From an uncultured archaeon (GTDB lineage Archaea > Thermoproteota > Bathyarchaeia > Bathyarchaeales > Bathycorpusculaceae): a stretch of 64,000 nt of DNA. The translations under genes and the position numbers were made by a program. The stretch lies in the NCBI GenBank assembly GCA_963782915.1, contig CAWALK010000015.1, positions 32,001-96,000 on the forward strand, given 5' to 3'. The notes beneath the pieces were generated by a model. It was given only the letters and a program-made list of their open reading frames with translations. It searched no databases and was not told the origin of the DNA. Of this stretch, positions 6,234-50,716 are shown piece by piece. Every line of letters begins with the position of its first letter. Position 1 is the first letter of the stretch.

Positions 6234-6247
6234 GGTGAAATGAAATA

Positions 6248-24457: not shown

Positions 24458-24502
24458 GCCTTAAATGGTTAGGCACTAACCTTAAGCAAGGCTCGACAAC
24501 GT

Positions 24503-26273: not shown

Positions 26274-26588
26274 ATGTTTATGCCAACAGCTTATGTCCTT
26301 TTGAACACGGAAATCGGAGCCGAAAACCAAGTTTTAAGAGCGCTAAAAGAAATGGATTGCGTTGAAGAAGCTTATCATCTTTGGGGAGTCTACGACATCA
26401 TCGCCAACATAACCGCAAATAACATGAACGAACTCAAAGACATCATAACTAACCGTATCGATGGAATCGGCCAAATCAACTCAAAATTAACGATGATAGT
26501 TTCCGATAAAGCCCCAGTGGTTTTCCCCAATAGAGCCGAATCGGAACACGGCCTTATCGATCGTGAACCAATGTCAGTGTATGCTTAG
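26274..26588 (+). CDS. Stand-alone Lrp/AsnC RAM domain protein with C-terminal extension
   Basis: MPTAYVLLNTEIG..LWGVYDIIA...SKLTMIV plus ~25 extra residues. Confidence 0.88.
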   Translation: MFMPTAYVLLNTEIGAENQVLRALKEMDCVEEAYHLWGVYDIIANITANNMNELKDIITNRIDGIGQINSKLTMIVSDKAPVVFPNRAESEHGLIDREPMSVYA

Positions 26589-26644
26589 AACCGCATTTTA
26601 GCGGACAATACTTTTTACCTTCCCTCCACCTTCTCTATTTCTAC

Positions 26645-28007: not shown

Positions 28008-28096
28008 CACCAAACCGAAATCTATTTTGAAATCCTTTAAATCCGACAAACCCATAAACCACTCCAACAACAAGCGGCTAAAAGAGGCACCATCAC

Positions 28097-30909
28097 ATGG
28101 TTGAAAAATCGTTCCCAGCAGAAGCTTATCAACTTCCATTCTTCAAACAAGAAGGCTTTGTCAGAAAACATTGCCCAAAATGCGGCGAATGGTTCTGGAC
28201 ACAAAACCAGAGTCAAGAAACCTGCGGCGAATCCGGCAGCGATGAATGCGGATGCTACAATTTCCTTGGCAACCCCGCCACAAAAAAGAAGTTCACCCTC
28301 CCAGAGATGCGCGAGGCATTCTTATCGTTCTTTGAGAAAAACGGGCACACACGCATAAAACCCTATCCAGTTGTTGCGCGTTGGAGAAAAGACATCTACC
28401 TCACCCATGCAAGCATCATCGATTTTCAACCCTATGTAACCGAAGGAATTTCGCCTCCACCAGCAAATCCACTGGTTATTTCGCAGCCTTCAATCAGATT
28501 AACTGACATCGCTAATACAGGTCCTACCTTTGGTCGACACCTAACCATTTTTGAAATGGGCGGTGCTCATGCATTCAACTATCCAGACAAAGAAGTCTAT
28601 TGGAAAGATGACACCGTACGATTCCACCAGCGTTTCTGTACTGAAGCGCTGGGAATCGCCTCAGATGCCGTGACCTATAAGGAAAGTGTTTGGGTTGGCG
28701 GAGGTAACGCGGGTCCAGCGGTAGAATGTATCGTTGGCGGAATAGAAGTTGGTACACTTGTGTTCATGCAGTACAAGGTTGTCGGCGACGAGTTTGTGCA
28801 GTTGCCAATTCGCACAGTCGATACTGGGTATGGCATTGAACGGTTCACTTGGATTAGTCAGGGCGTCCCAAGTCTTTTCCAGGCAGTCTACGGCGACTTG
28901 CTGGGCAAAGTCATGTCCATGGCAGGCATCACCGACATCGACAACGACTTCCTCGCAAGAGTAGCAAAATACTCAGGGCTTGTCAGCGTTGATAAACGCG
29001 CTAACCGCATGGTTGCACGCAGACGCGTCTCCGAATTAACAGGCATCGATTTACCCACACTCGAAAAAGTCCTCGTACCTATCGAGAACGCTTGGGCAGT
29101 AACAGACCACACAAAAACCCTAAGCTTCATGCTCTCAGAAGGTGTCGTCCCATCCAACATCCAAGAAGGCTACCTCGCAAGACTACTCTTCCGAAGAGTC
29201 TACCGCTTAATGCGTACACTCAACATGAACCCAGATGACCTCTACACAATCGTCGGATTGCAAGCGGATTACTGGGCAAAAGATTTCCCCCACATCAAAG
29301 CATTGCAGGGCGAAATCATTGAAATGCTCAAAGTCGAAGAAGAAAAATTCAAGGATACTCTCCTACGCGGCGAAGGCATGGTTAAACGCATCGCAGCTAG
29401 ACCTCAAATCCAAAGGCACAGGCAAACTCTCACCCGATACACTCGCCGAACTCTACGATTCCCACGGCTTACCACCAGAAATCGTGAAGCAAGCCGCCGA
29501 AAAAGAAGGCGTCGAAGTTGAGGTTCCAGAAAACTTTTATGCATTAATCGCAAGCCGACACATGGCAGCACCTAAACCAGTCGAGGAAGAAGACGCGAAA
29601 GCAGAGAAAACCCTTGAGGCAGAGGCTGAGAAGCTTCCCGCAACAGAGCCACTGTACTACGCAGACGTTTACCAACGTGAGTTTGACGCTAAAGTACTCA
29701 AAATCGTCGGAGACGTCTATGTCGTTTTAGAGGGGTCATGCTTCTATCCTGAAGGCGGTGGACAACCCTGCGATTTAGGCTGGATTACTGCAGACGGCAT
29801 CAAATATGAAGTTGTCGATGTGCAGAAAATCAGCAAAGTAATCGTACACAAACTCAAAGAACCAGCGCAGTTCAAGGAAGGCAGCACCGTCCATGGCATA
29901 TTGGATTGGGATAGACGCTACCAACTCATGAAATCCCACACAGTAACCCACCTAATCAACGGCGCAGCACGCAGAGTCCTAGGCGAACACGTCTGGCAAT
30001 CAGGCACACAGAAAGGTCTTGAAACCTCACGCCTCGACATCTCACATTACCGCAGACTCAGCCAAGAGGAAATCTTCAAAATCGAAACCTTAGCAAACCA
30101 AGCCATCGCAGCCAACATGAAAGTGGAAACCAAGTGGTACCCACGCAACGAAGCAGAATCAAAATATGGCTTCCGACTCTACCAAGGCGGCGCTGTTCCA
30201 GGAAAAGACATCCGCGTTGTCAAAACCGGCGACTGGGATGTTGAAGCATGCGCAGGCACACACTTGGGCACAACAAGCGAAGTCGGATTCGTAAAAATCG
30301 TATACACCGAACGGGTCCAAGACGGCGTTGAAAGATTAGGCTACGCTGTTGGGTTAAAAGCCCTCAAGGCAGTGCAAGACCAAGAAAGCCTTCTCGCAAA
30401 AGTCTCCGAGGTGCTCAATGCGCCAGTGGATAAGCTGGATAAGACCGCTGAGAAGGTCATGAAGGAATTCAAGGAAGCCCAAGTGGAGAAGCGCCGATTA
30501 ATCAAGGAGCTTGCAGCAAAAGAAAGCGCAGGCGTCGGCCAAGCCCAATCTGCTGAAGCAGCCCTCGAAGTAGACGGCATCGCAATCGTTAAACGGGATT
30601 TCGGCGAAATCATCGACGTCAACCGCATGGTACAAACCGCAACAGAAGTCATCAAACGCAACGAAGCCACCGTCACACTCTACTATGGCTCAGACGGCAA
30701 AACCTGCAGAATCATGATTATGGCAGGCGAAACCGCAACCAAAGAAGGGTGTTAACGCTGGCGGCATCGTCAAAGAAGTTGCCCCAATCTTCGGCGGCGG
30801 AGGCGGCGGAAGACCCAACTTTGCTCAGGGCGGCGGCACCAAATGCGACAAATTAGCTGACACCGTTGCAGCGGCTGAAGAAGCCGTAAAGAAGCAGCTG
30901 AAGCATTAA
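28097..30909 (+). CDS. alaS: Alanyl-tRNA synthetase, archaeal type (frameshifts near 29397 and 30745)
   Basis: YPVVARWR, GRHLTIFEM, VDTGYGIER, FYPEGGGQP, HTVTH editing motif, EACAGTH, GGGGGGRPNFAQGGG. Confidence 0.97.
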
Positions 30910-32498: not shown

Positions 32499-34401
32499 AT
32501 GAGCAACCAAAAACCAAACCAAAAAATCTTAGGAATTGACTTAGGAACAACCAATTCAGCCGCAGCCATCTATGAGGGGGGACATGCAACTGTTATCCCC
32601 AGCGCCGAAGGACCAACAATGGCGGGCAAAATGTTCCCATCCGTAGTAGCCTTCACAAAAGACGGCCAACTCCTGGTCGGTGAATCTGCGAAGCGCCAGG
32701 CCACCACCAACCCAGAGGGCACCGTGTTTGAGATCAAACGCAAGATGGGCAGCGACTACAAAGTTAACATCTACGGCAAAGAATACAGCCCACAGCAAAT
32801 TTCAGCGTTCATACTGCAAAAAATCAAGAAAGACGCCGAAAGCTACCTTGGCGGCACCCTAAACCAAGCCGTAATCACTGTACCAGCTCACTTCAACGAC
32901 AACCAACGTCAAGCCACCAAAGATGCAGGCGAAATCGCAGGGTTCCAAGTGATGCGTATCATCAACGAACCCACGGCAGCCTGCCTCGCATACGGCATCG
33001 ACAAGCTCCAGCAAGAAATGAAAATCTTGGTTTTCAGTTTCGGAGGCGGCACCCACGATGTCACATTAATGGACTTCGGCAAAGGCGTCTTCGAAGTGCT
33101 CTCCACAAGCGGCGATACTCAACTAGGCGGAACAGACGTTGACAAAGCAGTCATGACCTACATACTCGACGAATTCAAACGCCAAACAGGCGTAGACGTA
33201 TCAAACGACCGCATGGCCATGTCACGATTAAAAGATGCAGCAGAAAAAGCCAAAATCGAACTCTCAACACTCATGAACACAGACATCGACCTACCCTTCC
33301 TAACCGCAGACGCCTCAGGACCCAAACACCTACGCCTATCACTCACCAGAACAAAACTTGAATCACTCGCACAACCCATCGTTGAACGCACACAACCCAC
33401 ACTGCTAAAAGCACTTGGAAGACGCAAAACTCACCCCACAACAAGTCGACAAAATCATCCTAATCGGCGGCATGACCCGTATGCCCCTCGTGCAACGCTT
33501 CGTAGAGCAAATCTTGGGCAAGGCACCTGAACGCGGAATCGACCCCATGGAATCCGTCGCAATCGGAGCAGCCATCCAAGCAGCAGTCGTAACAGGCGAA
33601 GTCAAAGACCTACTACTCCTCGACGTAACCCCACTGAGCTTAGGCGTTGAAACAATGGGCGGCGTCATGACCAAAGTCATGGACAAAAACACCACCATAC
33701 CCACCAAACGCAGCCAAGTCTTTAGCACAGCCGCAGACTTCCAAACAGCAGTCACCATACATGTCCTACAAGGCGAACGCGCCATGGCAGCAGACAACGT
33801 CTCACTGGGCGAATTCAACCTCGTAGACCTACCACCAGCACCCAGAGGCATCCCACAAATCGAAGTAACCTTTGACATAGACGCAAACGGCATCCTAAAC
33901 GTCTCAGCTAAAGACCGCGGAACAGGCAAACTATCAAAAATCACCATCACAGCCTCAACCAAACTCAGCAAAGAAGAAAAAGAGCGCTTAATCAAAGACG
34001 CAGAACAATTCCAAGAGCAAGACCGCAAAAAGAAGGAAGAAGCAGAAACCCGCAACACCGCAGACAGCCTCGTCTACACAGCCGAACGCACCAAAACCGA
34101 TTTAGCAGGCAAAATCAGCCCTGAGGAAGTCGCTAAAGTTGACGCAGCAGTAACCGAACTCAAAAACGCCCTGGCAAGCAACGACATGGCAGCAGTGAAA
34201 GCCAAATCCGATGTACTGCAGAAGGTTCTACAGGAAGTCGGAACTAAAGTCTATCAGCAAGCAGCAGCCGAAGCCGCAAAACAGCAACAAGCACAAGGCC
34301 AAGCGGGACCACAGCCAGGCGCAGGACAAGGCCCAGAACCACAACAGGCACCAGGCGCTGGACCTGAAGTCGTCGACTCAGAAGATTACAAAGTAAAGTA
34401 A
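32499..34401 (+). CDS. dnaK: Chaperone DnaK/Hsp70 (frameshift near 33417)
   Basis: [54 protein letters not shown]. Confidence 0.98.
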
Positions 34402-37412: not shown

Positions 37413-37742
37413 TTAAGTGGAAGTGTTGCCGCCGTCTAGTTGGCCCTGCAGAATGCTGTAGTAAGTCCGCAGATATGTTTGGCCATCTGATGTTATTGTA
37501 TACACTTTGCGTGCGCGTCCGTCTTTTTGTTGTTTTTTGCTTTCGACGAAGCCTTTTTCTTCGAGGCTGTTTAATGTTGGGTAGAGGGCTCCGTGGCGGA
37601 TTTTTATCTGGAAATCTGTTTCTACTTGTTTTTTTATTTTGTAGCCCCATGTTGGTTCTGTTTGGATGATGCGGAGCAGCTGGATGTCGAGTAGGTTTCT
37701 GATTATGTGTTGTACAATTTCTTTTTTGTAGTTTTCTGACAT
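37413..37742 (-). CDS. PadR family transcriptional regulator
   Basis: WGYKIKK, GALYPTLNSLEEKGFV, GRARKVYTITSDG. Confidence 0.93.
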   Translation of the reverse strand: MSENYKKEIVQHIIRNLLDIQLLRIIQTEPTWGYKIKKQVETDFQIKIRHGALYPTLNSLEEKGFVESKKQQKDGRARKVYTITSDGQTYLRTYYSILQGQLDGGNTST

Positions 37743-37864
37743 TTAATCGTCCTTTTTGGGGCTTTGTTGATGTAGTGGTGATGTTGGATTAATTTAGCTT
37801 ATGTTGATTTTGGGGGTGAGGGGTTGGTTGGTTATGTTTTGATATGCTTGGGGTATGTAACAGG

Positions 37865-37937
37865 CTTTATATCGCTCTGTATTGTAGATACATATTCAAG
37901 ATATGTCCGAAGGAGGACATATTGTACATCTGTACAA
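37865..37937. promoter_or_regulatory. TATA-like box and two adjacent palindromes (candidate PadR operators)
   Basis: CTTTATAT at 37865; ATATGTCC-N6-GGACATAT (37901-37922); TTGTACA-TC-TGTACAA (37922-37937). Confidence 0.55.
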
Positions 37938-37964
37938 CACAAATACACAACGAGGAAAAGAAAA

Positions 37965-38366
37965 ATGTTCAAAGCCAGCTCACAAAAAGAGGTCTCAACC
38001 AAACTAATGAAAGGCCTACTAGACATGATCATACTCCAATTCCTCAACGGCGAACCAATGCACGGCTACCAAATCATCACAAAAATCCGCAAAAACTTCG
38101 GCGTCTACTTCGGACCCAGCACCATCTACCCACTCCTAGGCAGCCTAGAAAAGAAAGGCTACGTAAACAGCACCTGGAACATGAAATCCGAACGCCCACG
38201 CAAAATCTACAGCCTAACCCAAGACGGACAAAGCATGCTAAACTTCACAGAAGAATCCCTAAGCCTCATCTGCAGAAAAATAACCATCGTCAACCCAGAA
38301 ACAGAACCAACAGTCGGCATCATCGCCCACAAAAGCACAAGCCACCTCACAATCTCAGTCCCCTAA
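37965..38366 (+). CDS. PadR family transcriptional regulator
   Basis: KGLLDMIIL, MHGYQII, STIYPLLGSLEKKGYV, RPRKIYSLT. Confidence 0.93.
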   Translation: MFKASSQKEVSTKLMKGLLDMIILQFLNGEPMHGYQIITKIRKNFGVYFGPSTIYPLLGSLEKKGYVNSTWNMKSERPRKIYSLTQDGQSMLNFTEESLSLICRKITIVNPETEPTVGIIAHKSTSHLTISVP

Positions 38367-38512
38367 ATACTGGCAAGATTTCTTTGCCGCTTGCCAGAGC
38401 AAACTAATCACCTTACCCCGGTGGACCCAAAACCACCCTTCCAACATAATCCTGTTTTAAATACCCCAACACCCAATCACTATTAACGTAATATAAGAGG
38501 GGTAAATTAGCC

Positions 38513-40213
38513 ATAAAATCAGCAAACAGCCTCGAAAACGACGACATAAACAGCCAGATAGTAGAGTTTTGTAGGCATGTTGCTGGTCAATGCAAAATCG
38601 CTGCCATCGCCCAAGTGGATGATTACTCACAGAAACCCGGCAACGACCGCGTAATCCAAGAGGTTATGCTGGTTATTCATGATTTTCAACCTCGTCTCAT
38701 GAGCTATTTAAAATCGGTTAAAAACAAAACAGTCTTTGTTTTCGCGGTGGATCAATGGGTTTTCGAGCGAGACATCGACCGCGGCTTGTTGGGTGAAGCC
38801 ATCGCGAGTAAACTTATCTTTCCCTACCATGCCCTGCAAGGCGAAGCATACCTGCATGAGCGGGAACTGGAGCTTAAGCAACGCTTAGTCTTGGAGTTGC
38901 TTGAGAACATAGTTGTCAACTTTCCAGAGCTTGCTAACCGCATTCAGATTTTGCCGCAGTATTTCATGTATGAAGTGTTTTCTAATCGCATCAGGGTTTT
39001 TCCGTTGCTCGCCTATGATGTAGCTGACTTAACCAGGGGGTTAATGCAGAATGAACCGCAGGCGCTCGAAGGCTACTTGATGGCGCTCAAACGGTTGGAA
39101 GCACAGGGAAAAATTACCCAACAAAACGGCTACGTCTATGTTACAAAAAAGTTTATCATGCAATGCCAAGACCCCAAACTCCGCATCATCAACCTCGCAA
39201 AAAACGCGCCCCGAACGCTGTTCACCTCAATCTTCGGAACCATCCCCCAACTGATGAGCATCGTTACACAGAACGCCGAAGCGTTCTTGCGAACCCAAAA
39301 AATCAATTGGTTACACCAATCCGACCAAACTAGCCGCTTTGTCGATTCCCAAAAATACGTGTTCTTCCAAACTGGGGAGGGGTTGGTTTCGTTATCCGAC
39401 AAAATCGACATCAAAGGCTACACGCAGCGGATGCTGCTCAAGGATGCAGATGTGGAAGTGGAAGTGGAGCCAATCGGCGGCATGTTAAACGACGTGTACT
39501 TAATCCGTGCCGGGGAGCGTAAAGTGTTGGCTAAGCGGTTTAAGGATTGGTCTGGGTTTAAGTGGTTCCCGTTGACGTTGTGGTCTTTTGGGGCACGTTC
39601 ATTTGCTGTTTCGGGGCAAGCACGGCTCGCCAAAGAATGCGCGATTAGTGAGGTTTTGCATAGTGAAGGCTTCAACGTGCCAAAAATCCTCCATGTCAGC
39701 AACGCCCAACGCATTGTATTTATGGAGTTTATCGAGGGCAAGAGTTTGGCTAAAATAATCAAAGACTACTCCACCACGACGGATGAGTCCGTGGATGCTG
39801 AAGTGTTGGGCACGGTTGGCCGTGTCGGGGAAACCCTCGCAAAAGCCCACGGACACAACGTTGCCCTAGGCGATACCAAACCCGACAACGTCCTAATCCA
39901 AGCCGACGGCACCATATTCCTCATCGACTTCGAACAAGCCCAGCAAGGCGGCGACAAAGCATGGGACATCGCTGTTTTCCTCTATTACTGCGGCCATTAC
40001 CTGCAGCCTTTTGACAGCAACACCAAAGCGGAATCGATTGCCATCGCATTCATCGAGGGGTATCTTCGGGGCGGCGGAAACATCGATGACGTGCGTAAGG
40101 CTGGGTTGCCTAAGTATACGCGGGTGTTTAGTATTTTTACGATGCCGGCGTTTGTAACTGCGATTTCTCATGTCTGCAAAAAAGCCGAAGCCACAAGGTT
40201 AGCGGTTGAGTAA
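38513..40213 (+). CDS. Protein-kinase-like (RIO/Bud32/APH-type) enzyme with large N-terminal domain; start uncertain (frame open from 38492, first GTG at 38615)
   Basis: VLAKRF, VPKIL, FMEFIEG, HNVALGDTKPDNVLI, IDFEQ, WDIA. Confidence 0.8.
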   Translation: MKSANSLENDDINSQIVEFCRHVAGQCKIAAIAQVDDYSQKPGNDRVIQEVMLVIHDFQPRLMSYLKSVKNKTVFVFAVDQWVFERDIDRGLLGEAIASKLIFPYHALQGEAYLHERELELKQRLVLELLENIVVNFPELANRIQILPQYFMYEVFSNRIRVFPLLAYDVADLTRGLMQNEPQALEGYLMALKRLEAQGKITQQNGYVYVTKKFIMQCQDPKLRIINLAKNAPRTLFTSIFGTIPQLMSIVTQNAEAFLRTQKINWLHQSDQTSRFVDSQKYVFFQTGEGLVSLSDKIDIKGYTQRMLLKDADVEVEVEPIGGMLNDVYLIRAGERKVLAKRFKDWSGFKWFPLTLWSFGARSFAVSGQARLAKECAISEVLHSEGFNVPKILHVSNAQRIVFMEFIEGKSLAKIIKDYSTTTDESVDAEVLGTVGRVGETLAKAHGHNVALGDTKPDNVLIQADGTIFLIDFEQAQQGGDKAWDIAVFLYYCGHYLQPFDSNTKAESIAIAFIEGYLRGGGNIDDVRKAGLPKYTRVFSIFTMPAFVTAISHVCKKAEATRLAVE

Positions 40214-40254
40214 AAGTTATTTACCTAAAACCGGCTATAGTATTGTAGAGTTTT

Positions 40255-40537
40255 ATGACTGATTTTTATTACTACAAAGGGCTCTTACAGCGTCAAACTT
40301 TTAACGGAAGCCGAGGGCTACTGGATTGTTGAGGCACTGGAAGATTTTGATGATTACCTGGAAGGCGAACGAGTAAACGTTAAAGCCGGCGAGCAACGCA
40401 TCGTGCAGCCCAGTGAATTGCATAAAAAAAAGGTGCTTTCGCCGCCGATACCGGAGCATGTGTATGAGCGGCAATTGGAAAAGAAAGTTAAGCACATGGT
40501 TGAAGAATACGAACAAAAAACCAGCCCAAACCAGTAA
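40255..40537 (+). CDS. Small hypothetical protein (frameshift near start; absent from ORF track)
   Basis: Manual translation MTDFY..TKGSYSVKLLTEAEGYWIVEALEDFDDYLEGERVNVKAGEQRIVQPSELHKKKVLSPPIPEHVYERQLEKKVKHMVEEYEQKTSPNQ*. Confidence 0.6.
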
Positions 40538-40604
40538 CGCCGACTTGTGGTTGCAGCCTATTAGCCACATACGTTAATGTGCCCTTGAACGGTTTGTTTT
40601 TAAG

Positions 40605-41033
40605 GTGAATTTTTTGTTAGGACAGAAATTATTTGAAGGCAAAGGCAAAGCCGGACCGAGTTTCTTAAAGAAAGTCAGTATGGAAGGAGTTAAGCAGATG
40701 TATGCTTGGACTGCGCAGGTAAAAGGCATGGGCCGAGCAGCAGGCACTGATTGCTTCCTCACTGTTACCGCAAAAGGCAATACGCCGCCAAAAGGGTTAG
40801 GCGTAGCAAAAGACATCGGCATCTTTAGGACCTCAACCGGCGAAATGGGTACAATCAAAGGTTATGACGTGGCTAAAATGATGGGCGCTAAACCGATGAG
40901 TGTGGGGTTGTGGACGTTTATGACTATGTCGGATAAGCTCATGTGGCTGAACGATGTGATTGCGATTGTTACTTTTGAGGGCGTTGATCCGATGTGGCAG
41001 GAATTCAACGTAGCAATCTATGAGTGGGCATAA
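40605..41033 (+). CDS. Hypothetical beta-rich protein
   Basis: Clean ORF; LGQKLFEGKGK...KLMWLNDVIAIV...AIYEW. Confidence 0.7.
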   Translation: MNFLLGQKLFEGKGKAGPSFLKKVSMEGVKQMYAWTAQVKGMGRAAGTDCFLTVTAKGNTPPKGLGVAKDIGIFRTSTGEMGTIKGYDVAKMMGAKPMSVGLWTFMTMSDKLMWLNDVIAIVTFEGVDPMWQEFNVAIYEWA

Positions 41034-41143
41034 ACCACTTTTTCTTTAATCTGCAAGCCATACCTCTTCAATGTTCGTCAGTCAGAGCCTCAACCGTCTA
41101 GTGTAGAATAAAACTTCAAAAGCAAGCGACAGATTAACAAAGT

Positions 41144-41509
41144 GTGCACCATAAAAAAGCAGCTCTCTCCCTTGCTCTAAACGCGTTATGCTTAGCGCTT
41201 TGGGTAGGCATCACCATAGTTTCCCTGTCAATGAACACACCCATAGGCTACGTTATTAGCGCCGTATTTTTTGCGATTTCCTGCTATAGCGTCTACTATT
41301 TCTATCGGATATTGTGGCTCCATAACGGCGGACGTCCCCTCTCAGCGGAGAAAAAACAGAAAAGAGACCAATACCGAAAGCAAATGCGCAATTACCAGCG
41401 ATATAACCTCTACCACCGTTTATACCGCTTTGCTGATGCAACAGAGGATGAATATCAAGCCGAGAAAGCTAAAGAAAGATTAAAGAAGATACGCAGGTAT
41501 ACCATGTGA
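41144..41509 (+). CDS. Hypothetical membrane protein
   Basis: Two N-terminal TM helices and a basic tail. Confidence 0.55.
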   Translation: MHHKKAALSLALNALCLALWVGITIVSLSMNTPIGYVISAVFFAISCYSVYYFYRILWLHNGGRPLSAEKKQKRDQYRKQMRNYQRYNLYHRLYRFADATEDEYQAEKAKERLKKIRRYTM

Positions 41510-41689
41510 TCGTACGCGGTTGCGGTGGCTCAGGCTTTTGCAGTTAGCTCAGGCACCGTATTCCGAGTAGTAAGCCTGTTAGTTAATTGTTTTAGGGGTG
41601 TAACTTTATGTTGGTTTTATTTGGGTTATAATTTCTTGAGAAGGTTTAAATCATTAATTATAATGCTGTTATGACAACAGGTTTTCATA

Positions 41690-43456
41690 ATGGCTTCAGT
41701 CCATCTTTCCTACACCAAAGAGCAACTGCAGGATAAGGTCGATTTCGATATTTCCAAAGTTCTCGACCTCCAAGCATTACAGGAAATGATGGATGAGTTC
41801 TTTAAGGTAACGAAAATAGGGTTTAGCCTAATAGACCTAAACGGAAACGTCTTGGTCGGAACAGGCTGGCAGGATATTTGTGTTGATTTTCACCGCAAAA
41901 ATCCCCAAACCTTGAAGAACTGTTTAGAAAGCGACCTTGAACTAACAAAGGGCGTAAAAGAGGGCGAGTACAGAGTATATAAGTGTAAAAACGGCTTAAT
42001 CGATACCGTCACGCCTCTTTTTATCGGCGGAATGCATGTCGCCAACATATTATCGGGGCAATTCCTCTTTAAAGGAGAAGGCGATGACATCGACAAATTC
42101 GCAGCCCAAGCCGAGAAATACGGTTTTGACAAGGAAGCGTATATTTGTGCATTTAAGACTGTTCCCCGCTGGGATAAGGGTCAAGTAGACGCCCTGCTGG
42201 TTTTCTACACAAAGTTAACTCATATGCTTTCTAAAAAGGGCCAAGCAAACCTGAGGTTATCTCAATTATTAGATGAGAAAGCGAAAGTGAAGAAAGAACT
42301 GGAAATGAGTCAGGCTGATTTAAAGCGTGCACAGGCAGTCGGGAAAATGGGTAATTGGCGGGTTTTAGTTGACGGCGGCTTATTCTGGTCCGATGAGACT
42401 TACCGAATTTTTGGCATTCCTAAAGAAACTAAACTGAGTTATGACATGTTTATTGAAGCGGTGTACCCTGAGGACCGTGAGTATGTTGATTGTGAATGGC
42501 AGGCTGCTCTGCGGGGGAAGCCGTATGATATTGAACATAGAATAGTGGCGAATGGCCGAATTGTTTGGGTCAGGGAGAAGGCAGAACTTGAATTTAAGGA
42601 TGGAAACTTGCTTGGCGGTTTTGGAACTGTACAGGATATAACAAAGCGAAAACAGGTTCAACTTAGGCTTCAAGAAAAGACCGCGGAATTGGAAAGTACC
42701 CAAAAGAAACTTGAAGAAAACGCTGTCTCCATTGAAGCGTACGCACATCAAATGGGGCATCTTGCCGACGAAAGATTAGAGAAACTAAAACAAGCAGAGC
42801 GTTTAGCAGTAATTGGGCAAACCGCAGGCATGGTTGGGCATGATATACGTAATCCCCTGCAGGCTATGATTAGTGACGTTTACTTGCTAAAAGATGAACT
42901 GTCATTGATGCCTCATTGTAAGACAAAAGAAGGCGTCGTTGAAAGTTTGGACAGTATAGAAGCAAATATCGGTTATATCAACAAAATCGTTGCTGACTTG
43001 CAAGATTACGCTCGGCCCCTAAAACCCCAATACGTTGATATCAATTTGTATGAGTTGGTCACAAACCTTTTCCGCAATATTATTTTGCCCACCAATATTG
43101 ACTGCTCAATAGATATCGCCCCCTCCTTTGAGTTAAAGTCCGATGACACGCTTGTAAAAAGAATCTTGACCAACATAATTATCAATGCTATTCAAGCAAT
43201 GCCAAACGGCGGAAAATTAACCATAAAAGGTTGTTTAACCGATGAAGCAGTATTAGTTGTTGTTAAAGACAGTGGGGTGGGAATTCCTGAACATGTTAAA
43301 CCAAAACTGTTTACCCCTATGCTAACAACAAAATCCAAAGGACAAGGTTTAGGTTTAGCTGTAGTCAAACGTTTAGTTGAAGCATTAAACGGCGCTATTA
43401 GCTTTGAAAGCCAAGAGGGTAAAGGAACCGAATTCACCATACAGCTACGCCGCTGA
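41690..43456 (+). CDS. PocR-PAS-histidine kinase
   Basis: PocR (GWQDICVDFHR, YKCKNGL, LSGQF), PAS (FWSDETYRIFG), MVGHDIRNPL, NAIQAM, DSGVGI, GQGLGL. Confidence 0.93.
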   Translation: MASVHLSYTKEQLQDKVDFDISKVLDLQALQEMMDEFFKVTKIGFSLIDLNGNVLVGTGWQDICVDFHRKNPQTLKNCLESDLELTKGVKEGEYRVYKCKNGLIDTVTPLFIGGMHVANILSGQFLFKGEGDDIDKFAAQAEKYGFDKEAYICAFKTVPRWDKGQVDALLVFYTKLTHMLSKKGQANLRLSQLLDEKAKVKKELEMSQADLKRAQAVGKMGNWRVLVDGGLFWSDETYRIFGIPKETKLSYDMFIEAVYPEDREYVDCEWQAALRGKPYDIEHRIVANGRIVWVREKAELEFKDGNLLGGFGTVQDITKRKQVQLRLQEKTAELESTQKKLEENAVSIEAYAHQMGHLADERLEKLKQAERLAVIGQTAGMVGHDIRNPLQAMISDVYLLKDELSLMPHCKTKEGVVESLDSIEANIGYINKIVADLQDYARPLKPQYVDINLYELVTNLFRNIILPTNIDCSIDIAPSFELKSDDTLVKRILTNIIINAIQAMPNGGKLTIKGCLTDEAVLVVVKDSGVGIPEHVKPKLFTPMLTTKSKGQGLGLAVVKRLVEALNGAISFESQEGKGTEFTIQLRR

Positions 43457-43672
43457 TTACTCAGAAGACTGTTCGTATGGTATAATGAGCCAAACCGCAA
43501 ACGGCTACGGTATGGGACGCTGCCGCTAAACAACAGCCCTTTTTCCTTTTTTAATCAAGCGAACTCAAAAAATACCATTTAAATCTAAACCTCAAAATCC
43601 AAATACAGTATCTATTTTTTTTAGCGCCCTTTTAGTTGGTTTTCTACCTAAGGCTGGAAAATGATATTTTGG

Positions 43673-45197
43673 CTAAATATAATACTTGAATTTCGGGTTT
43701 ACCTTTTTAATTGTTGGATTAGAAACAAGAATCTCGCCTACTGCATTAGAGAATCCTATTGTTACTGGCGTTGAATCGCCGTATTTGCATTCGTTGAAGT
43801 TAAGTTTTGTTAGCCCTAAAATGTCAGTTGCCACTTGGTCGAGGTCGGAATCACCATATTGCAGGTCAATTCGTAGCGGTACAGGAATTTCCCATCCATC
43901 ATAAGTACCTAAGAAGGGTTTGAATCCAGTTGTCCATAGGTAACCTCTTTTATCACTAATCTTAAGAAATGTGCCCCGTAATACTGGCCATCTTCCTTCT
44001 CTATATAAACGGATCTGATCGGGTTCTTGCCTTATTTTGATGCAAACAACTTTTTTAGAAGGACATGCTGATCGAAAGCCTTGATATTCCTCAAAATTAA
44101 TTCCTGCTTTATAATGAAGAAAAACCTCATTCAATGGTTTCCCCTCAAGTTCTTGATAAGTCGTTAATACTTCGGTAAGTAAATCTTTGGCAGCTTGTTT
44201 CGATAAATGGAATTCACCGTCCTTTGGAGAAAACCAGGGCCCCATGTCTCCTCTTATTACGACACCGTCCCCGCTATCGAGAAACATCTGCGCAGCGCAA
44301 CAAGCATATTTATTGCCGAATGCTGGGTCAGTCCTATGGAAAACAACACCGACATAACACACACCATTTCTCGCTGTACTCAGACGCCAAGGCTTTCCAC
44401 CCGCCTTGTAGAACAACGTTGTGCAAATATTCCATGCTCTGTCTGACAAAGGGGTCTTGCCTATTTTGGCGATCAAGGGATCATCATCATTAGCCAGAGT
44501 CGATTCTAATACAATTTGTATTGGTGCTTCGATTTTCTCTTTTAAGGCTCTTGCTTTCAATTGGCGCCTAAAATCTACCGAATACTTATACATAGAAAGG
44601 TCCAAGGATGCGAGAAGTTCTGTTTGGCCAATCGCTCGGTTCTTTCGGTCACTCGAAGAAATTCTTTCGCCTACTCCGTCTTTTATGTAGCTTTTTGGTC
44701 GACAATTTTCATAGATAATATCAGGTACAACACAAACTATAGTATCAATTCTATCGTCGGTGTTCATTAGATGCCGTATTCCTTCAAGGTATTGGTTAAC
44801 TACCTCGTATGCTCGTTTATTAGGGTCTAAATCTGTAGAATCTGACACTAATTTTTCAGCATCAACTTGAAACTTTTGAGTTGGTTTACTCGGTAGGTGA
44901 GAATAAAATGTCGCTTGGAAACCAGGAAATGGCGGCCATAATTTGGGGCTGTCTATTCCTTTTTGGGAAATAATAACATTTTGAATTTTTTCAAAAAATC
45001 CTTCGGCCATTTCTATACCGTGAGGTGTCCCGACTAGACCGAATGAAATGTTTTTCGGGTGCCCATTTGTATCAGTATCATAGGGGCCAAAAATGGTTAA
45101 ACCTACTTTAGGATCTATTACCTTCTGCCCATATCTAAATTTCTAGATAGGGCTCGCCAAGAAAATTTAAGTTATATCGAATCGGGTTCTGTGCCAT
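43673..45197 (-). CDS. Short prokaryotic Argonaute (MID-PIWI, catalytically inactive), SPARTA-type; 1-nt frameshift near 45140
   Basis: ATG at 45197 gives ...LGEPYLE/FRYGQKVIDPKVGLTIFGP; then FRRQLKARAL, PIQIVLESTL, WNICTTLFYKAGGKPWRL, CCAAQMFLDSGDG, DILGLTKLNFN, PVTIGFSNAVGEIL, FKYYI C-terminus; ~507 aa when joined. Confidence 0.93.
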
Positions 45198-46541
45198 CGC
45201 TTTCCGCCTCAGTCGGTTCATCAGTCAATATTATTTCTTCGTTTTCAGTGCACTCGGGGACCGTTAATTTTTTTTCGTCAATACCAAAATTGCTATCAAA
45301 GGTCATTGGATTCATCGGTATCTTAAAATTACCTGAGTCACTTTGAGCGATTATTACCTCTTCTTTTCCATCACTTAACCACTGTGAAAGTGCCAATATT
45401 CTAGATAGCCATTGGTAATTCCACCAAGTCTTACACAAAGCTTTCCTGTGTGAATTTGCACGTCTTGGCTCGATAGCGTTCCCTTCTAAATCAGTCCAGT
45501 AAACGCTAATCCTTAATCTTACAACTGGTTCCCCTAACATATTAAGGAAAAATCTAAAATCAGGCGATAAGTGGTATCTCGCATACTCTGTAATTTCCAC
45601 ACCTTGTTGAAACGATTTGAACTTCTTACTGCCAACTACTAGCACATGCACTTTTTTGTTATCAAACCTAGTTAAAAACAACTTATCGTTAGGCACTAAA
45701 CTTTTTGGGAAATATATAGGACCATCGTTATCCCGCTTTAATCCCTTCCTTTTACAGAATTGATAGAAGCATTCCCCTAAAAGTTGCGATAGCGTATTCA
45801 TCATTGGTTGATTGTAATCGCCAATTATTCTTTGTACCTCAAACTCTTGGTTCATCCTTAATCCGTTATTGCCAGTTGTTTGAGGCTCGCCAAAGGCCCA
45901 AATAAATTCATCATTTATTTTTAGAAACGCCCAATTTCGATCTATATTTTCCAGGCTGATCTCTGGTGTAATTTTATATTTCCTTAAGTATTTAGGCAAC
46001 TTCTAGAACGGGAATTATGTTTGACCAAATTTTTTCCTTTCGGGTTTCAGGTTGCTCATCAGATTTTAGTAAAGTGCCTATGTTTTGATGAGCACTATCT
46101 AGCTCTCTTGGCGCTTTTATTTCGTTCAATTTATTCAAAAGAGCACAAAAACCCCCAAACCAACTTCTGTTAAATGAAATATAGGATAAATCTGACAATG
46201 AAAAATCAAGTTCTGAGGGTTTTAGCCCATCGAGGTTAATTGGAATTAGAAAGTCTGGGCTTTTCTTGCTCTTTCCAACATTTAATGCCTAGTGTGCGCT
46301 CTTTTCTTGGATTCTCCTTGTTGATAGAATTGTGCGATAAAATAGCAATTAATCTAAATGTTTTATTTTGAATGGCTTCTGTTATATCGTGCGGATAAGA
46401 TTCACCGCCTAACAATTTCAGGCGATCGTACCATACCTTAAATCCTTCGGATGCCAGCTTTAGTGCAAGCCAATCAGCGAAACAACCATCCTCTATAGCA
46501 TAACTAATAAAAAGATGCTCTGGAGGATTTGCGGTCGCCAT
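45172..46541 (-). CDS. TIR-APAZ effector (frameshifts near 46265 and 46000)
   Basis: TIR: LFISYAIED..FADWLALKL..GFKVWYD..LLGGE, then (joined) FLIPINLD, YISFNRSW..G...LL. APAZ: IYFPK, YHLSP, RKALCKTWWNYQWLSRILA. ~455 aa joined; its end overlaps the Ago start. Confidence 0.9.
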
Positions 46542-46893
46542 GTGAGATCATGGTAAGTAATGCTAATTTGCTTATATTAACTAACGCCTGATGACAAAAA
46601 CACAATAATTTAGTTACTAACATATGCGCTACCAGATTCAATTATGTTAGTTTTGTTGTGTTTTTTGTTTGTTGGGATCTTTATAGGTGGCGGGTGGCTG
46701 CTGGGTTGAGCGGTTTAGTTTTTGTTTTGGAGGGTGTTGTGGGTTTGTTTGTTGTTTTGGTTTTATGGGCTACTATGTTGTGCCTTCTGTGGTACAAGAC
46801 GGCTTATCTGTTGGCGGCTGCTTTTGGCTGGGGTGACGGGCTAAGGAATTGAATGGGCCATGCTAGTGCCCGAATTGCATTTTGCTATTCATT

Positions 46894-46964
46894 GTTTGCA
46901 AAGTTATTCACTAATTCAGTCTATAAATAAGGGAGGGGGTAGGTCCTCTGAGGTAGGTAGGTCC
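46894..46964 (+). repeat. TATA/G-tract repeat element, copy C
   Basis: GTTTGCAAAGTTATTCACTAATTCAGTCTATAAATAAGGGAGGGGGTAGGTCCTCTGAGGT; matches the reverse complement of parts of 50717-50838. Confidence 0.85.
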
Positions 46965-46992
46965 TGTCTTTTTACCTAACCGAAGTTTTGGG

Positions 46993-47565
46993 CTAATAGT
47001 TTTCTGTCCAAACTTCAAAGTATGCTTGCGGATGGTTGCATGTTGGGCAACTGTCGGGTGCGTTGGGTCCTTCGAGGACCATGCCGCAGTTTCTGCATCT
47101 CCACTTGACTGGTGCATCTTTCTTGAACACTTTACCGGCCTGAACGTTTTCTAATAGTTTGTTGTATCGGCGTTCATGGTAAACTTCTACGCCTGCAACC
47201 ATGGTGAAGGTTTTTGCAACATCCATAAAACCCTCTCTTTTGCGGTTTCAGCAAAGTTCGGGTAAAGTGTGCCCCACTCGAGTTTTTCGCCTTCCGCGGC
47301 ACCCTTCAAATTAGTCTGCTGTTGAGGCAATGATGCCTGCTGGGTACGAAGCGGTGAATTCTACCATGCCGCCTTTGAGGTGCTTAAAGAAGAATTCGGC
47401 ATGTTCTTTCTCGTTGGCTGCTGTTTCCTCGAAGATTGCGCCGATTTGTTCATAACCTTCTTTTTTGGCTACGCTGGCAAAGAAGGTATATCGGTTTCGT
47501 GCTTGGGATTCACCTGCGAACGCTGCAAGCAGGTTCTTTTCGGTTTGGCTTCCACTAAAATTCAT
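46993..47565 (-). CDS. rbr: Rubrerythrin (frameshifts near 47305 and 47235)
   Basis: NLLAAFAGESQARNRY, ETAANEKEHA, EVYHERRY, WRCRNCG, CPTCNHPQAYFE. Confidence 0.93.
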
Positions 47566-47668
47566 ACTATTGGACTCCTTACCATTGATTTGAATAAACA
47601 AAAATAAAAGCATATCCAAAACCCCAAAACCATGTTAAAGGCTTTTATTTTCCACTTTCTATGATGTG

Positions 47669-47742
47669 TTTGCCGAATGATGAGAAGGCATTAAGTTGAC
47701 ATAATTGATTGGATGAAAATTCAGAGTTACTCAGACGGCAAA
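47669..47742 (+). ncRNA. Candidate box C/D sRNA
   Basis: 7-bp terminal stem TTTGCCG/CGGCAAA, C box ATGATGA (47677), D' TTGA, C'-like TGGATGA, D-like CAGA, with 12- and 15-nt guide-length spacers. Confidence 0.5.
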
Positions 47743-47790
47743 GGGTGAGTAACCTTATACGGTGTGGTAACCGTGTAGGGTTATTCACCT
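47743..47790 (+). other. Long RNA hairpin (~20-bp stem with G-U pairs)
   Basis: GGTGAGTAACCTTATACGGT-GTGGTA-ACCGTGTAGGGTTATTCACC; all three non-Watson-Crick positions are G-U on the + strand. Confidence 0.6.
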
Positions 47791-47987
47791 GACTATCCAA
47801 TCAAAAACAGTAAACCCCGATTATTCTTCGTTTGCACAAAGCGCTATCCCCCAACCGAAAAACAAAACACCGCTAACCAGCCAGCCCACTTCACCCAACA
47901 ACGCCTCCAACATTAACATGCCAGCGATAGTAATTTTTAAAAGGACTACACACGTATTGATTAACTCTGTTTAGAGGAAGAGAAAGG

Positions 47988-49616
47988 TTGGAAACAGTAA
48001 CCGGCAAAAAAATAGTGCTCACAGCATCAGCCACTGAAATGAGCGATTTCCTAAATAACCCATTCATAGCGTTCGCGGGAGGCTTCGGAAAAGGCCCATT
48101 CCCACTCTCATACGTAAGAAAAACACTCTACCCCGGCTGCGGCAAAAAACCGGACGGACAAGCAGCATACGCACCCTACGGACTGCGCAAAGTAGAAGCC
48201 ATACTTCTGCAAGGCGGCTTCTCAGCAGACGACATCGCAGTAGCCAACCCAGAAGACCTCGACTTATTCATCGGACCAAACACCAAAGTCGTCGGAATCT
48301 CCTCCATGGACCCCACCGGCATGGGATACGTCAGCAAAACCTACAGCAGCATCGTTGGCGGCGGCGAACCCATGAACCGCATAGAATTCCGAAAACTCAT
48401 AGAGCACCCCGCCATCAAAAAATATAAACCAAAAATCATCGTCGGCGGATACGGCTCTTGGCAACTTGAACGCCAACACGTCTCACAAAGCTACGGCATA
48501 GACTGCGTACTTATGGGCGGCAGACCGGGACCAATCATTGAACTCTTCAAAAAAGCCGTCAACGGCGAAGCGATTCCACGCATAGCCAAAGCAGACGAAT
48601 CACTGGATAACTGGAACTACAACCAAGAAATGCCCCTTACAACAAACGTGGCAATTCACGGCGCAGTAGAAATCAGCAAGGGCTGCGGTCGAAACTGCCA
48701 ATTCTGCACACCCACCATGCAGCACAAAATCGATGTGCCATTGGAAAGAATCATGAACGAAGTAGCCTTAAGTACTGCTCAGGGCAGCGATCACATTACC
48801 TTAATCACCGAAGACCTCTTCTTGTACGGCGCAAAAGATGCCCGATTCATTCCTAACCGAGAAGCAGTCGTTAACCTTTGCAAAAGCGTCGCAGATTACC
48901 CCGGCGTTAAAAGCATACAAGCCGCACACATGTCCTTGGCGCCAGTTTACCATGACCCCCAAATGATTCAACAACTCGCAGAAATTTTAATCGAAAAATC
49001 CTGGTACAGCTTCGGCAAAAAACCCATAATCACCGCCGAAACAGGCATCGAAACCGGCAGCCCACGCCTCATGAAAAAATATATGGCCGGCAAAATGTTA
49101 CCCTTCAAGCCGGAACAGTGGCAAGATGTGGTCACCAACGCTTTTGGTATCCTAAACGATAATGACTGGTACCCATTGGCAACCTTGATTATCGGTTTGC
49201 CGGATGAGAAAGAAGAAGACATGCTCCAAACCTTAGAGTTAATGGATAAACTCAAAGGTTACAACGCGTTTTATGTGCCGCTCTTCTTTGTGCCACTCGA
49301 AAACTGCGTACTCATGAACAAGAAAGGCGCAGAAATGGATTCCCTCTCAAAAGCACGCTGGGACTTCTTCATCAAATGCTGGGAATACAACATCAAAATC
49401 TGGAAACCCACATTCCTAGAAAACCGCTTACCGAACCCGGTGGCGTACAAGGCATTCGACAAAGTCGTTATCCCCTACATCGGCAAAATCTTAGGCGCAT
49501 ACTACAGCTTAACACGCGGCGATAGCAGCCAACAATTCAAGCAGGCTGTTTACCAATTAAGTATGCCGATGCCTGATAATGGTCGAAAAGTAAAAGGAAA
49601 AGAAAGTAAGGTTTAG
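47988..49616 (+). CDS. Radical SAM protein with B12-binding-like N-terminal domain
   Basis: APYGLRKVEA, VGISSMDP, IIVGGYG, EISKGCGRNCQFC (CxxxCxxC), GIETGS, IIGLPDE. Confidence 0.88.
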   Translation: METVTGKKIVLTASATEMSDFLNNPFIAFAGGFGKGPFPLSYVRKTLYPGCGKKPDGQAAYAPYGLRKVEAILLQGGFSADDIAVANPEDLDLFIGPNTKVVGISSMDPTGMGYVSKTYSSIVGGGEPMNRIEFRKLIEHPAIKKYKPKIIVGGYGSWQLERQHVSQSYGIDCVLMGGRPGPIIELFKKAVNGEAIPRIAKADESLDNWNYNQEMPLTTNVAIHGAVEISKGCGRNCQFCTPTMQHKIDVPLERIMNEVALSTAQGSDHITLITEDLFLYGAKDARFIPNREAVVNLCKSVADYPGVKSIQAAHMSLAPVYHDPQMIQQLAEILIEKSWYSFGKKPIITAETGIETGSPRLMKKYMAGKMLPFKPEQWQDVVTNAFGILNDNDWYPLATLIIGLPDEKEEDMLQTLELMDKLKGYNAFYVPLFFVPLENCVLMNKKGAEMDSLSKARWDFFIKCWEYNIKIWKPTFLENRLPNPVAYKAFDKVVIPYIGKILGAYYSLTRGDSSQQFKQAVYQLSMPMPDNGRKVKGKESKV

Positions 49617-50494
49617 GCAGTTTCTTGTTCTGCCATTTCTTCTTCTAATTGTTCTTCTTGTTGTTCTAAAACCATGTTTTCTGCCGCTGCTTCCGGTGTT
49701 GCTTGGGGTGTTCGGTGGTGGTTTATGATTTTTCTTGCGTGGGTTATGTAGCCTGTGTGCCCTGTCATCATGGTGTTGGGTCTGGTTTTGCCGCGTTCAA
49801 CTTGCATGCTGCGCATTAGGCATTCGATGGTTTCTATGAATACGAAGCCTTGGTCGCGTAGTGCTTCGGTTGTGCGCACGACTTGGTCGATGGTTGGGCT
49901 AAAGGAGACGAGTATGCCTGAGGGTTTGAGTGCTTCGTAAGCGTGTGGCACTACTAGCCACGGAACCGCAAGGTCCAAAATCACTGCGTCTAAGTCGCGT
50001 TCGGCGATGCCCATGGTTACGTCGCCGCTTTTCATCTCAACGTTGTCGATGAGTTTGGAGCGTGCCAAGTTTTTGGCGGCGTTTTTCTGGAATTCCGGGC
50101 GTAACTCGTAAGTGTAAACTTTGCCTGTTGGCCCAACATAATGCGCTAACGCTGAGGTTAATGCGCCTGTGCCTGTGCCTGATTCGAATACGCGGCTTCC
50201 GGGGCCGATACCGCTAAACATAACGATTAAAGCGGCGTCTTTGGGGTAAACGATTTGTGTGTTGCGTCCCGACTTCATCATGTAATCGGTTAACGACGGT
50301 TTGAGTGTGGCGAATGTTACGCCTAAGCTGCTTTTGATTGGTTCACCGTATTCTTTGCCGATTAAATCATCCAGTTTCAGGAAGCCTTTGTGGGTATGGA
50401 AGCTTTGTCCCGACTGCACCTTAATCATGTATGTTCTGCGGGCGTCCAGGTAAATTAGCACCATGTCCCCGTCAGCGATTAACTCGTTAGTCAA
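49613..50494 (-). CDS. trmI: tRNA (adenine-57/58-N1)-methyltransferase
   Basis: FHTHKG, TQIVYPKD, ESGTGTGALT, DAVILDL..PW, FSPTIDQV, GHTGYI. Confidence 0.95.
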   Translation of the reverse strand: MTNELIADGDMVLIYLDARRTYMIKVQSGQSFHTHKGFLKLDDLIGKEYGEPIKSSLGVTFATLKPSLTDYMMKSGRNTQIVYPKDAALIVMFSGIGPGSRVFESGTGTGALTSALAHYVGPTGKVYTYELRPEFQKNAAKNLARSKLIDNVEMKSGDVTMGIAERDLDAVILDLAVPWLVVPHAYEALKPSGILVSFSPTIDQVVRTTEALRDQGFVFIETIECLMRSMQVERGKTRPNTMMTGHTGYITHARKIINHHRTPQATPEAAAENMVLEQQEEQLEEEMAEQETA

Positions 50495-50716
50495 ATAGTG
50501 TTCCTCGAAAAGTGAAAATGATGCGGTGCCATTTAAGCTTTGAAGCCCTTACGACGCATTTTTCTATATTGCGTTCGGTCGGAGCGGCGTTGTTTTTTCT
50601 TTGTTAATTGTTGCTGTGGGCTCCTTTTATTTCAACAACAACCAACAGGCTTGGATGTGCAAATGTTTGGCGTCTGCGTTTGAGTTGGTTTGGTTCAGCT
50701 TTGCCGTATACGTTTA

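Follow-up and report, generated by a model that had tools for sequence, protein, structure and literature searches.

Short prokaryotic Argonaute (pAgo) systems in which the Argonaute (Ago) is paired with a TIR-APAZ protein (SPARTA) have been described from bacteria. The census of SPARTA by phylum, as given in the legend to Figure S1A of PMC9097488, lists bacterial phyla only, and reviews and structural papers treat the system as bacterial (in PMC11370952, for example, the word "archaea" never occurs). Two recent surveys report that Argonautes are prevalent in Thermoproteota and Bathyarchaeia (PMC12988326, PMC13477220), and one of them mentions a TIR-type cluster among Bathyarchaeia-associated pAgo genes; in the portions of text available, neither names SPARTA. 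In the literature that we searched, which did not extend to the supplementary tables of PMC9097488, PMC6299218 and PMC12988326, no archaeal SPARTA or TIR-APAZ is named. Here we analyzed a 64,000-nucleotide stretch (the window) of contig CAWALK010000015.1 from an uncultured archaeon of the class Bathyarchaeia, in which a two-gene unit on the minus strand (43673-46541) consists of a TIR-APAZ gene overlapping the gene of a short MID-PIWI Ago. Judged by its sequence, this unit is a SPARTA system of clade S2A. The explanation that we favor, and regard as fairly probable, is that it represents a SPARTA abortive-infection module in a Bathyarchaeia chromosome, carried on a horizontally gained segment of 5.95 kb, with reading frames broken by single-base assembly errors. 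An earlier reading of the same letters (the original prediction) had already named a SPARTA-type operon and had added that the characterized examples are bacterial, which holds in the published literature examined.

The TIR-APAZ gene amounts to about 455 codons in three pieces (84 + 96 + 275 = 455) and the Ago gene to about 507 codons in two (19 + 488 = 507). The open reading frames (ORFs), gene pieces and upstream element are as follows.

46541..46236, minus strand: ORF piece of 101 amino acids (aa) from its ATG
46288..45995, minus strand: ORF piece of 98 aa, stop to stop
46002..45175, minus strand: ORF piece of 276 aa
45142..43676, minus strand: ORF piece of 489 aa stop to stop, 445 aa from the first ATG
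46290..46541, minus strand: TIR-APAZ piece 1 with the TIR domain (Pfam TIR_2, E 1.6e-15), codons 1-84; residue 81 is the catalytic Glu
46001..46288, minus strand: TIR-APAZ piece 2, last part of the TIR domain and the linker or bridging region (PADLOC and tblastn)
45172..45996, minus strand: TIR-APAZ piece 3, APAZ domain, acidic C-terminal tail and stop codon (PADLOC)
45141..45197, minus strand: Ago start piece of 19 codons, its ATG at 45197 inside the TIR-APAZ end (N-terminal alignment consensus)
43673..45139, minus strand: short pAgo MID-PIWI piece, 488 codons plus stop, with an RK-type MID pocket and a terminal Ile (PADLOC, solved chains)
46571..46580, minus strand: putative TATA-like A/T-rich box preceding the TIR-APAZ ATG by about 35 nt (sequence reading), a candidate archaeal promoter

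The four ORF fragments thus lie exactly where the original prediction had placed them, and the joined lengths bear out its model of a TIR-APAZ whose end overlaps the Ago start at 45197; the TIR-APAZ stop (45174-45172) is placed 23 nt downstream of that ATG. Its description of an AT-rich unit is also borne out, the GC content being 0.354-0.43 over 43500-46500 versus 0.444 for the contig, as is the position between a PocR/PAS histidine kinase (41690-43456) and rubrerythrin (46993-47619). The strings GVVF, FKYYI and PRKERTL, on which it had commented, are present in the translations.

The original prediction had proposed a PADLOC search, and in this search argonaute-system models matched all four pieces at collinear profile positions. 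TIR-APAZ piece 1 matched PDLC02421 (positions 5-88 of 430, E 1.6e-22), piece 2 the same model (83-175 of 430, E 7.8e-14), and piece 3 both PDLC02421 (239-422 of 430, E 5.9e-23) and PDLC02403 (254-435 of 443, E 4.1e-24), while the main Ago piece matched the class I pAgo_I model PDLC02378 from position 13 to the end (493 of 493, E 2.3e-161). Because these E-values range from 2.3e-161 to 7.8e-14 and the profile positions are collinear, a chance match is excluded. Pfam recognized TIR_2 in piece 1 and nothing in a scan of the other three pieces, APAZ and this PIWI domain being below its reach. In a collection of 5.8 billion proteins, the Ago homologues have 503-523 aa (the best is 73% identical), and all five nonself TIR-APAZ homologues have 452-455 aa with a TIR domain. 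By tblastn, full-length homologues (TIR-APAZ of 452-455 aa, Ago of 508-509 aa) cover the pieces collinearly with no residues missing: TIR-APAZ residues 1-97, 87-188 and 178-451 map to three successive frames, and Ago homologues align to the window from residue 2 to the C-terminal end.

Comparison with solved structures allowed us to identify the functional residues, the equivalences being counted along the printed pairwise alignments. The Ago matched the solved SPARTA Ago chains over their full length (8ifk_B, E 2.5e-95, positions 14-507 of 507; 8fex_B, 8j7s_A and 8qlo_B similarly), and both the TIR piece and a full-length TIR-APAZ homologue matched the partner TIR-APAZ chains. Solved chains such as 8fex and 8ifk we take to be the SPARTA of Maribacter polysiphoniae and Crenotalea thermophila (MapSPARTA and CrtSPARTA). 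The Glu of PRKERTL, E81, aligns with E77 of the TIR-APAZ chain 8j7s_B, just where the original prediction had expected the catalytic residue, and E77A abolishes NADase activity in both CrtSPARTA and MapSPARTA (PMC9097488). In the Ago, R192, K196, Q209 and K246 align with H207, K211, Q222 and K263 of the MapSPARTA 5'-phosphate pocket, T215 aligns with T228 (role described in PMC10355822), W303 with the sensor-loop W320 (role described in PMC10474274), and the C-terminal Ile with I507, which holds the metal at the guide 5' phosphate (PMC10474274). A scan of one genome per GTDB species returned at least 558 relatives of the Ago, and the counts of loci given here refer to the best 80 of these. The sensor-loop Trp is invariant in all 80, and the RK-type MID pocket, in which Arg replaces His207, also occurs in 80 of 80; RK is a known MID-pocket variant of short pAgos (PMC6299218). 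The window SPARTA sequence conforms to all invariant columns in an alignment of 25 sequences. All short pAgos are described as lacking the DEDX catalytic tetrad (PMC9097488, PMC6299218), and from this family membership the PIWI domain of the window Ago is predicted to lack it as well and to be catalytically inactive. PADLOC models, the full-length match to solved chains and the conserved key residues thus all agree with the SPARTA-type identity first proposed.

The reading frames of the unit are interrupted three times, and each change is +1, which corresponds to one surplus base in the assembly (or two missing ones). These breaks and the other broken stretches of the window are located as follows.

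46288..46289, minus strand: frame break 1 (+1), a surplus G at CTAG, three codons past the catalytic Glu
45997..46002, minus strand: frame break 2 (+1), a surplus base no more than 6 nt after CTAG
45140..45142, minus strand: frame break 3 (+1), a surplus A in the run of A that directly follows CTAG
6239-7939, 24473-25559, 26567-28004, 28082-30752, 32499-34398 and 46993-47619: frame-broken stretches outside SPARTA

At least eight further breaks therefore affect unrelated genes, and 9 of the 11 breaks counted in the window are +1. The alanyl-tRNA synthetase (AlaRS) gene is split over two frames (Pfam positions 1-375 and 377-552) with the break at CTAG (29397); the gene of TiaS, the archaea-specific tRNA-Ile agmatidine synthetase, is broken in the assembly; DnaK is split (Pfam positions up to 318 and 316-599), as is a BadF/BcrA-type ATPase (1-126 and 130-271), and a second BadF/BcrA-type ATPase of the window is probably broken too. 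The gene at 24473-25559 is frame-broken in comparison with two relatives, and rubrerythrin (46993-47619) carries a +1 and a -1 change about 80 nt apart, which restore the frame. Among 49 ORF comparisons with relatives, eight were flagged as split, and three were accepted (TiaS, and gene 24473 from two relatives); the other five were discarded, four as matches of AsnC-family paralogues and one as antisense. AlaRS and TiaS are sole copies in the genome, and their orthologues in relatives are unbroken, so the breaks in these two genes are not biological.

CTAG, a tetramer with only 69 occurrences in the window, is found within 0-6 nt of each of the three SPARTA breaks and of the AlaRS break (sites 29397, 45143, 46003 and 46289). 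Across the genome, in zones where one long ORF hands over to another by a +1 shift, CTAG is 1.44-fold enriched (64 of 585 zones, third among 256 tetramers); for -1 shifts the figure is 1.08-fold (36 of 491 zones, rank 98). The genome as a whole is depleted of CTAG, GATC and GGCC (ratios 0.46, 0.37 and 0.33). Long-read callers err at methylated motifs, and CTAG is methylated in some archaea. Insertions that recur systematically at one motif suggest miscalled bases or a faulty consensus where that motif is modified, and the CTAG-linked breaks may be of this kind. The +1/-1 pair in rubrerythrin is a typical sign of a locally poor consensus.

It seems likely to us that the three SPARTA breaks are assembly errors, namely single-base insertions of an error-prone, probably long-read, assembly, because at least eight more breaks in the same window hit genes such as AlaRS, TiaS, DnaK and rubrerythrin. 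The chief alternative, which we hold to be doubtful and yet of real weight, is that SPARTA is a recent pseudogene whose three +1 frameshifts are present in the DNA of the organism. Several observations speak for it and so weigh against assembly error: SPARTA has about 1.05 breaks per kb, whereas the window outside it has 0.13 per kb or more (about 8-fold), which by Poisson arithmetic gives about 0.38 breaks expected where 3 are seen (P about 0.007); 3 of the 8 CTAG sites in SPARTA are broken versus 1 of 61 elsewhere in the window; across the genome, CTAG is only modestly enriched at +1 hand-overs; and the end branch of the window Ago is longer than that of its sister (0.35 versus 0.19). Costly abortive-infection genes are often inactivated, and the rarity of the clade in the class (3 of 400 other genomes) fits frequent loss. 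Nevertheless, the sole AlaRS gene is likewise split by a +1 shift at CTAG, and real breaks in AlaRS, TiaS and DnaK would be incompatible with a living cell. The adjacent core gene rubrerythrin, with its two compensating shifts, points again to poor local consensus. Moreover, apart from three single bases, the SPARTA genes show no decay: coverage is full and collinear, no in-frame stop occurs within the pieces, no codon is lost and the invariant residues are kept. The excess of breaks in SPARTA would be explained, speculatively, by lower coverage of a segment carried by only part of the population. On assembly error, the TIR-APAZ and Ago genes are probably intact in the organism, and indels of this kind probably number in the hundreds over the whole genome, which would make its gene calls unreliable. 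Programmed frameshifting and an alternative genetic code were also considered and rejected, since the breaks are frame changes rather than stop codons, hit unrelated genes that share no slippery motif, and are absent from the homologues in other genomes. Side by side with this locus, the TIR-APAZ next to Ago is split into several tblastn pieces at two loci from bacterial long-read assemblies (L071, L025), one of them MinION-only, and frame-broken SPARTA genes may be a recurrent artifact of such assemblies.

If the genes are intact, homology to the solved systems predicts how the module would work. TIR-APAZ and the catalytically inactive short Ago would form a heterodimer whose MID pocket holds a 5'-phosphorylated guide; pairing of the guide with complementary single-stranded DNA of an invader would move the PIWI sensor loop, the complexes would tetramerize, and the TIR domains would assemble an active site around the Glu. 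Hydrolysis of NAD(P)+ would then lead the infected cell to die or go dormant. The guide type and the expression of the system in this archaeon are likewise inferred, and one residue deserves attention. Arg225 of MapSPARTA reads the 2'-OH of guide nucleotide 1 (PMC10355822). This position is Arg in 71 of the 80 related loci, and it is Leu, next to a 2-residue MID insertion, in the window Ago, in the closest Bathyarchaeia locus (L008) and in the closest metagenomic homologues; the second closest locus (L009) has Lys. Arg225 is a feature of MapSPARTA and not a family-defining criterion. A functional module with a mechanism unlike that of MapSPARTA and CrtSPARTA, in which DNA guides are preferred or guide choice is relaxed, would draw on this substitution and on a report of DNA-guided SPARTA activation (PMC11851103); we consider it very unlikely, given that Thr228 and the whole 5'-phosphate pocket are kept and that a single residue is weak ground for another mechanism. 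As a broader and quite tentative idea, which we think rather improbable although worth stating, archaea would hold their own long-standing SPARTA lineages (the Bathyarchaeia clade and a 13-member clade described below), and the Bathyarchaeia subclade, with Leu for Arg225 next to the 2-residue insertion, might choose its guides in another way, such as taking DNA or accepting both types, in hosts that are unlike bacteria in their transcription and RNA 5' ends. If true, this would be the first archaeal SPARTA to characterize.

The host is an archaeon of the class Bathyarchaeia, in accord with the chromosome assignment of the original prediction. The genome comprises 3.28 Mb in 25 contigs and is 93.5% complete; its small-subunit rRNA, on another contig, scores 1479 bits with the archaeal model versus 1092 with the bacterial one, and the 326,791-bp contig of the window itself encodes TiaS. 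The CTP synthase of the window is 84% identical to that of the genome with locus L008 (a Bathyarchaeota metagenome-assembled genome [MAG]) and 49-55% to those of four other archaeal MAGs. This genome (G162) belongs to the same GTDB family as the window genome, and that with locus L009 (G290) to the same class, so both the CTP synthase identity and the shared GTDB ranks support a Bathyarchaeia host.

Among the best 80 loci, 15 are archaeal: 2 from Bathyarchaeia, 4 from Micrarchaeota, 5 from Methanomassiliicoccales/Thermoplasmatota, and 1 each from Methanosarcinales, ANME-1, Pacearchaeota and one further archaeon. Directly upstream of Ago, 78 of the 80 loci have a TIR-APAZ, among them every one of the 15 archaeal loci; in the remaining two (L044, L078), no TIR-APAZ match was obtained upstream with the query used. 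The closest Agos are those of the two Bathyarchaeia MAGs, L008 (CALMWK010000024.1, 70% identity) and L009 (JBEKDF010000022.1, 65%). A quick maximum-likelihood tree was built from 81 Agos (the nearest 80 and the window), midpoint-rooted and with Shimodaira-Hasegawa-like approximate likelihood-ratio (SH-aLRT) supports. In this tree, the window Ago groups with these two (SH-aLRT 100), and the other 13 archaeal Agos, each with TIR-APAZ upstream, form one all-archaeal clade (SH-aLRT 99; L011, L012, L023, L024, L029, L038, L039, L045, L046, L051, L073, L079 and L083) drawn from Micrarchaeota, Thermoplasmatota, Methanosarcinales/ANME-1 and Pacearchaeota MAGs. The archaeal or bacterial label needs only two changes on this tree. 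The distribution within the class is patchy: the three of 400 other genomes with an Ago of this clade show 70%, 65% and, for one partial match, 70% identity, and two more hold distant Agos (32-33% identity). A shared context with the nearest relative was looked for and rejected, as the flanks of L008 map to other contigs of the window genome. This different genomic context and the rare, patchy distribution suggest that the module is mobile within Bathyarchaeia. The original prediction has to be corrected in that the nearest relatives are other Bathyarchaeia and not bacteria; on this evidence, an archaeal donor is more likely than a bacterial one, most likely another Bathyarchaeia lineage. That a bacterial SPARTA fragment was joined into an archaeal contig by assembly or binning, as the lower GC of the segment and the first cataloguing of SPARTA in bacterial phyla (PMC9097488) might suggest, is highly improbable, because both flanks lie on one 326,791-bp contig collinear with same-genus genomes and the closest Agos and TIR-APAZ come from two other Bathyarchaeia MAGs that form a clade with the window Ago (SH-aLRT 100).

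The original prediction had proposed to look for an empty site in related MAGs, and one was found. Locus L107, from a genome of the same genus (G081), runs collinear with positions 37434-41032 and 46984-50507 of the window and has about 400 bp in place of 5.95 kb. The resulting segment and its repeat are as follows.

41034..46983: variable segment of 5.95 kb, by comparison with collinear G081, containing a 121-aa ORF, the PocR kinase, SPARTA and a dispersed repeat
46662..46945: dispersed repeat, long form, directly upstream of the operon at the right edge of the segment (about 8 long copies, 79-81% identity)
46914-46967: dispersed repeat core (more than 50 genome copies, 85-98% identity)

When a 10-kb DNA query was compared with 60 same-genus genomes, no match fell in the SPARTA part among the matches listed, and the rubrerythrin and radical-SAM/TrmI genes matched in nearly all 60 (69-83% identity). 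At the protein level, a close Ago was found in 0 of 24 same-genus genomes and an Ago match at E <= 1e-60 in 0 of 40. Two of the 24 genomes (loci L004, G019:C9, and L005, G014:C1) encode distant short pAgos of about 500 aa with 28-31% identity, presumably of a different short-pAgo system. The empty site, the missing matches in 60 same-genus genomes and the low GC together support horizontal acquisition. This part of the original prediction therefore stands, whereas the unit has to be redrawn as the 5.95-kb segment that also includes the kinase, the 121-aa ORF and the repeat. As for mobility signatures, its statement that neither integrase nor flanking repeat was seen is upheld: the flanking repeats of the segment are only 14-31 nt, at chance level, no integrase was found, the small ORFs at the segment edges have no Pfam family, and no target-site duplication is seen at the empty-site junctions.

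The part of the segment at 41144-43456 holds the PocR-PAS histidine kinase and the 121-aa ORF of no known family, with host-like GC. The PocR part was matched at the DNA level in 1 of the 60 same-genus genomes only (G066, 69%), among the matches listed. Over the kinase the GC content resembles that of the host (0.43-0.44), whereas over SPARTA it is low (0.354-0.43), a contrast which suggests that the two may have arrived separately. A functional link between kinase and SPARTA found no support, as neither the L008 nor the L009 locus has the kinase and its GC is host-like. The dispersed intergenic repeat contains a tandem GGTAGGTCC-like motif, and a similar motif occurs in the G081 empty site; its core folds no more stably than shuffled sequences (z-score 0.27) and has no Rfam match. 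No tRNA or Rfam family was found anywhere in the window. In two further genomes (L110, G021; L111, G050), the block of rubrerythrin, radical-SAM and TrmI-like methyltransferase genes (46984-50507) is inverted relative to the neighboring kinase gene, the locus being prone to rearrangement.

The novelty claimed by the original prediction has to be divided accordingly. Public MAGs contain many archaeal SPARTA loci (15 of the best 80), and in this respect the claim does not hold, while the system is still unnamed in archaea in the literature searched; SPARTA is thus undocumented there by name and plainly present in public archaeal MAGs. The new points are modest ones, namely the apparently archaea-specific SPARTA clades and the subclade-specific loss of the RNA-reading Arg225. 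They matter because SPARTA biology and its diagnostic uses rest on few bacterial examples. The window locus and the 15 archaeal loci indicate that SPARTA circulates among archaea, apparently in archaea-specific clades, and provide a natural set in which to test guide acquisition under archaeal transcription. Automated annotation yields four hypothetical fragments at this locus, so defense censuses of long-read MAGs miss such systems; the indel load across the genome in turn tempers claims of frameshift-joined or programmed-frameshift genes in this assembly.

Placed among the described systems, the window Ago resembles SiAgo/Aga1/Aga2 of Sulfolobus islandicus (PMC11788926) and AfAgo in being a short or truncated archaeal pAgo, whereas those proteins are described with other partners and no TIR-APAZ; neither SiAgo nor AfAgo appears by name among its solved-structure matches. 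With SPARSA (SIR2-APAZ/Ago, S1A/S1B) and SPARDA (nuclease-APAZ, S2B) it shares a short inactive pAgo, an APAZ-fused effector and the abortive-infection logic, but the effector here is a TIR domain, and the SIR2-APAZ models of PADLOC score far lower. The L008 and L009 loci are alike in their Agos, at the identities given above, and in a TIR-APAZ (about 454 aa) directly upstream, and differ in that their genes are unbroken and their genomic contexts are different. Like the Maribacter and Crenotalea SPARTA (S2A; PMC9097488), the window unit has TIR-APAZ upstream of, and overlapping, a MID-PIWI Ago of about 507 aa, together with the Glu77 equivalent, K211/Q222/K263, Thr228, Trp320, the C-terminal Ile and the acidic APAZ tail. 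It departs from them in its archaeal host, in Arg for His207 and Leu for Arg225, and in three assembly frame breaks, and its TIR-APAZ is far more diverged from their counterparts than its Ago is.

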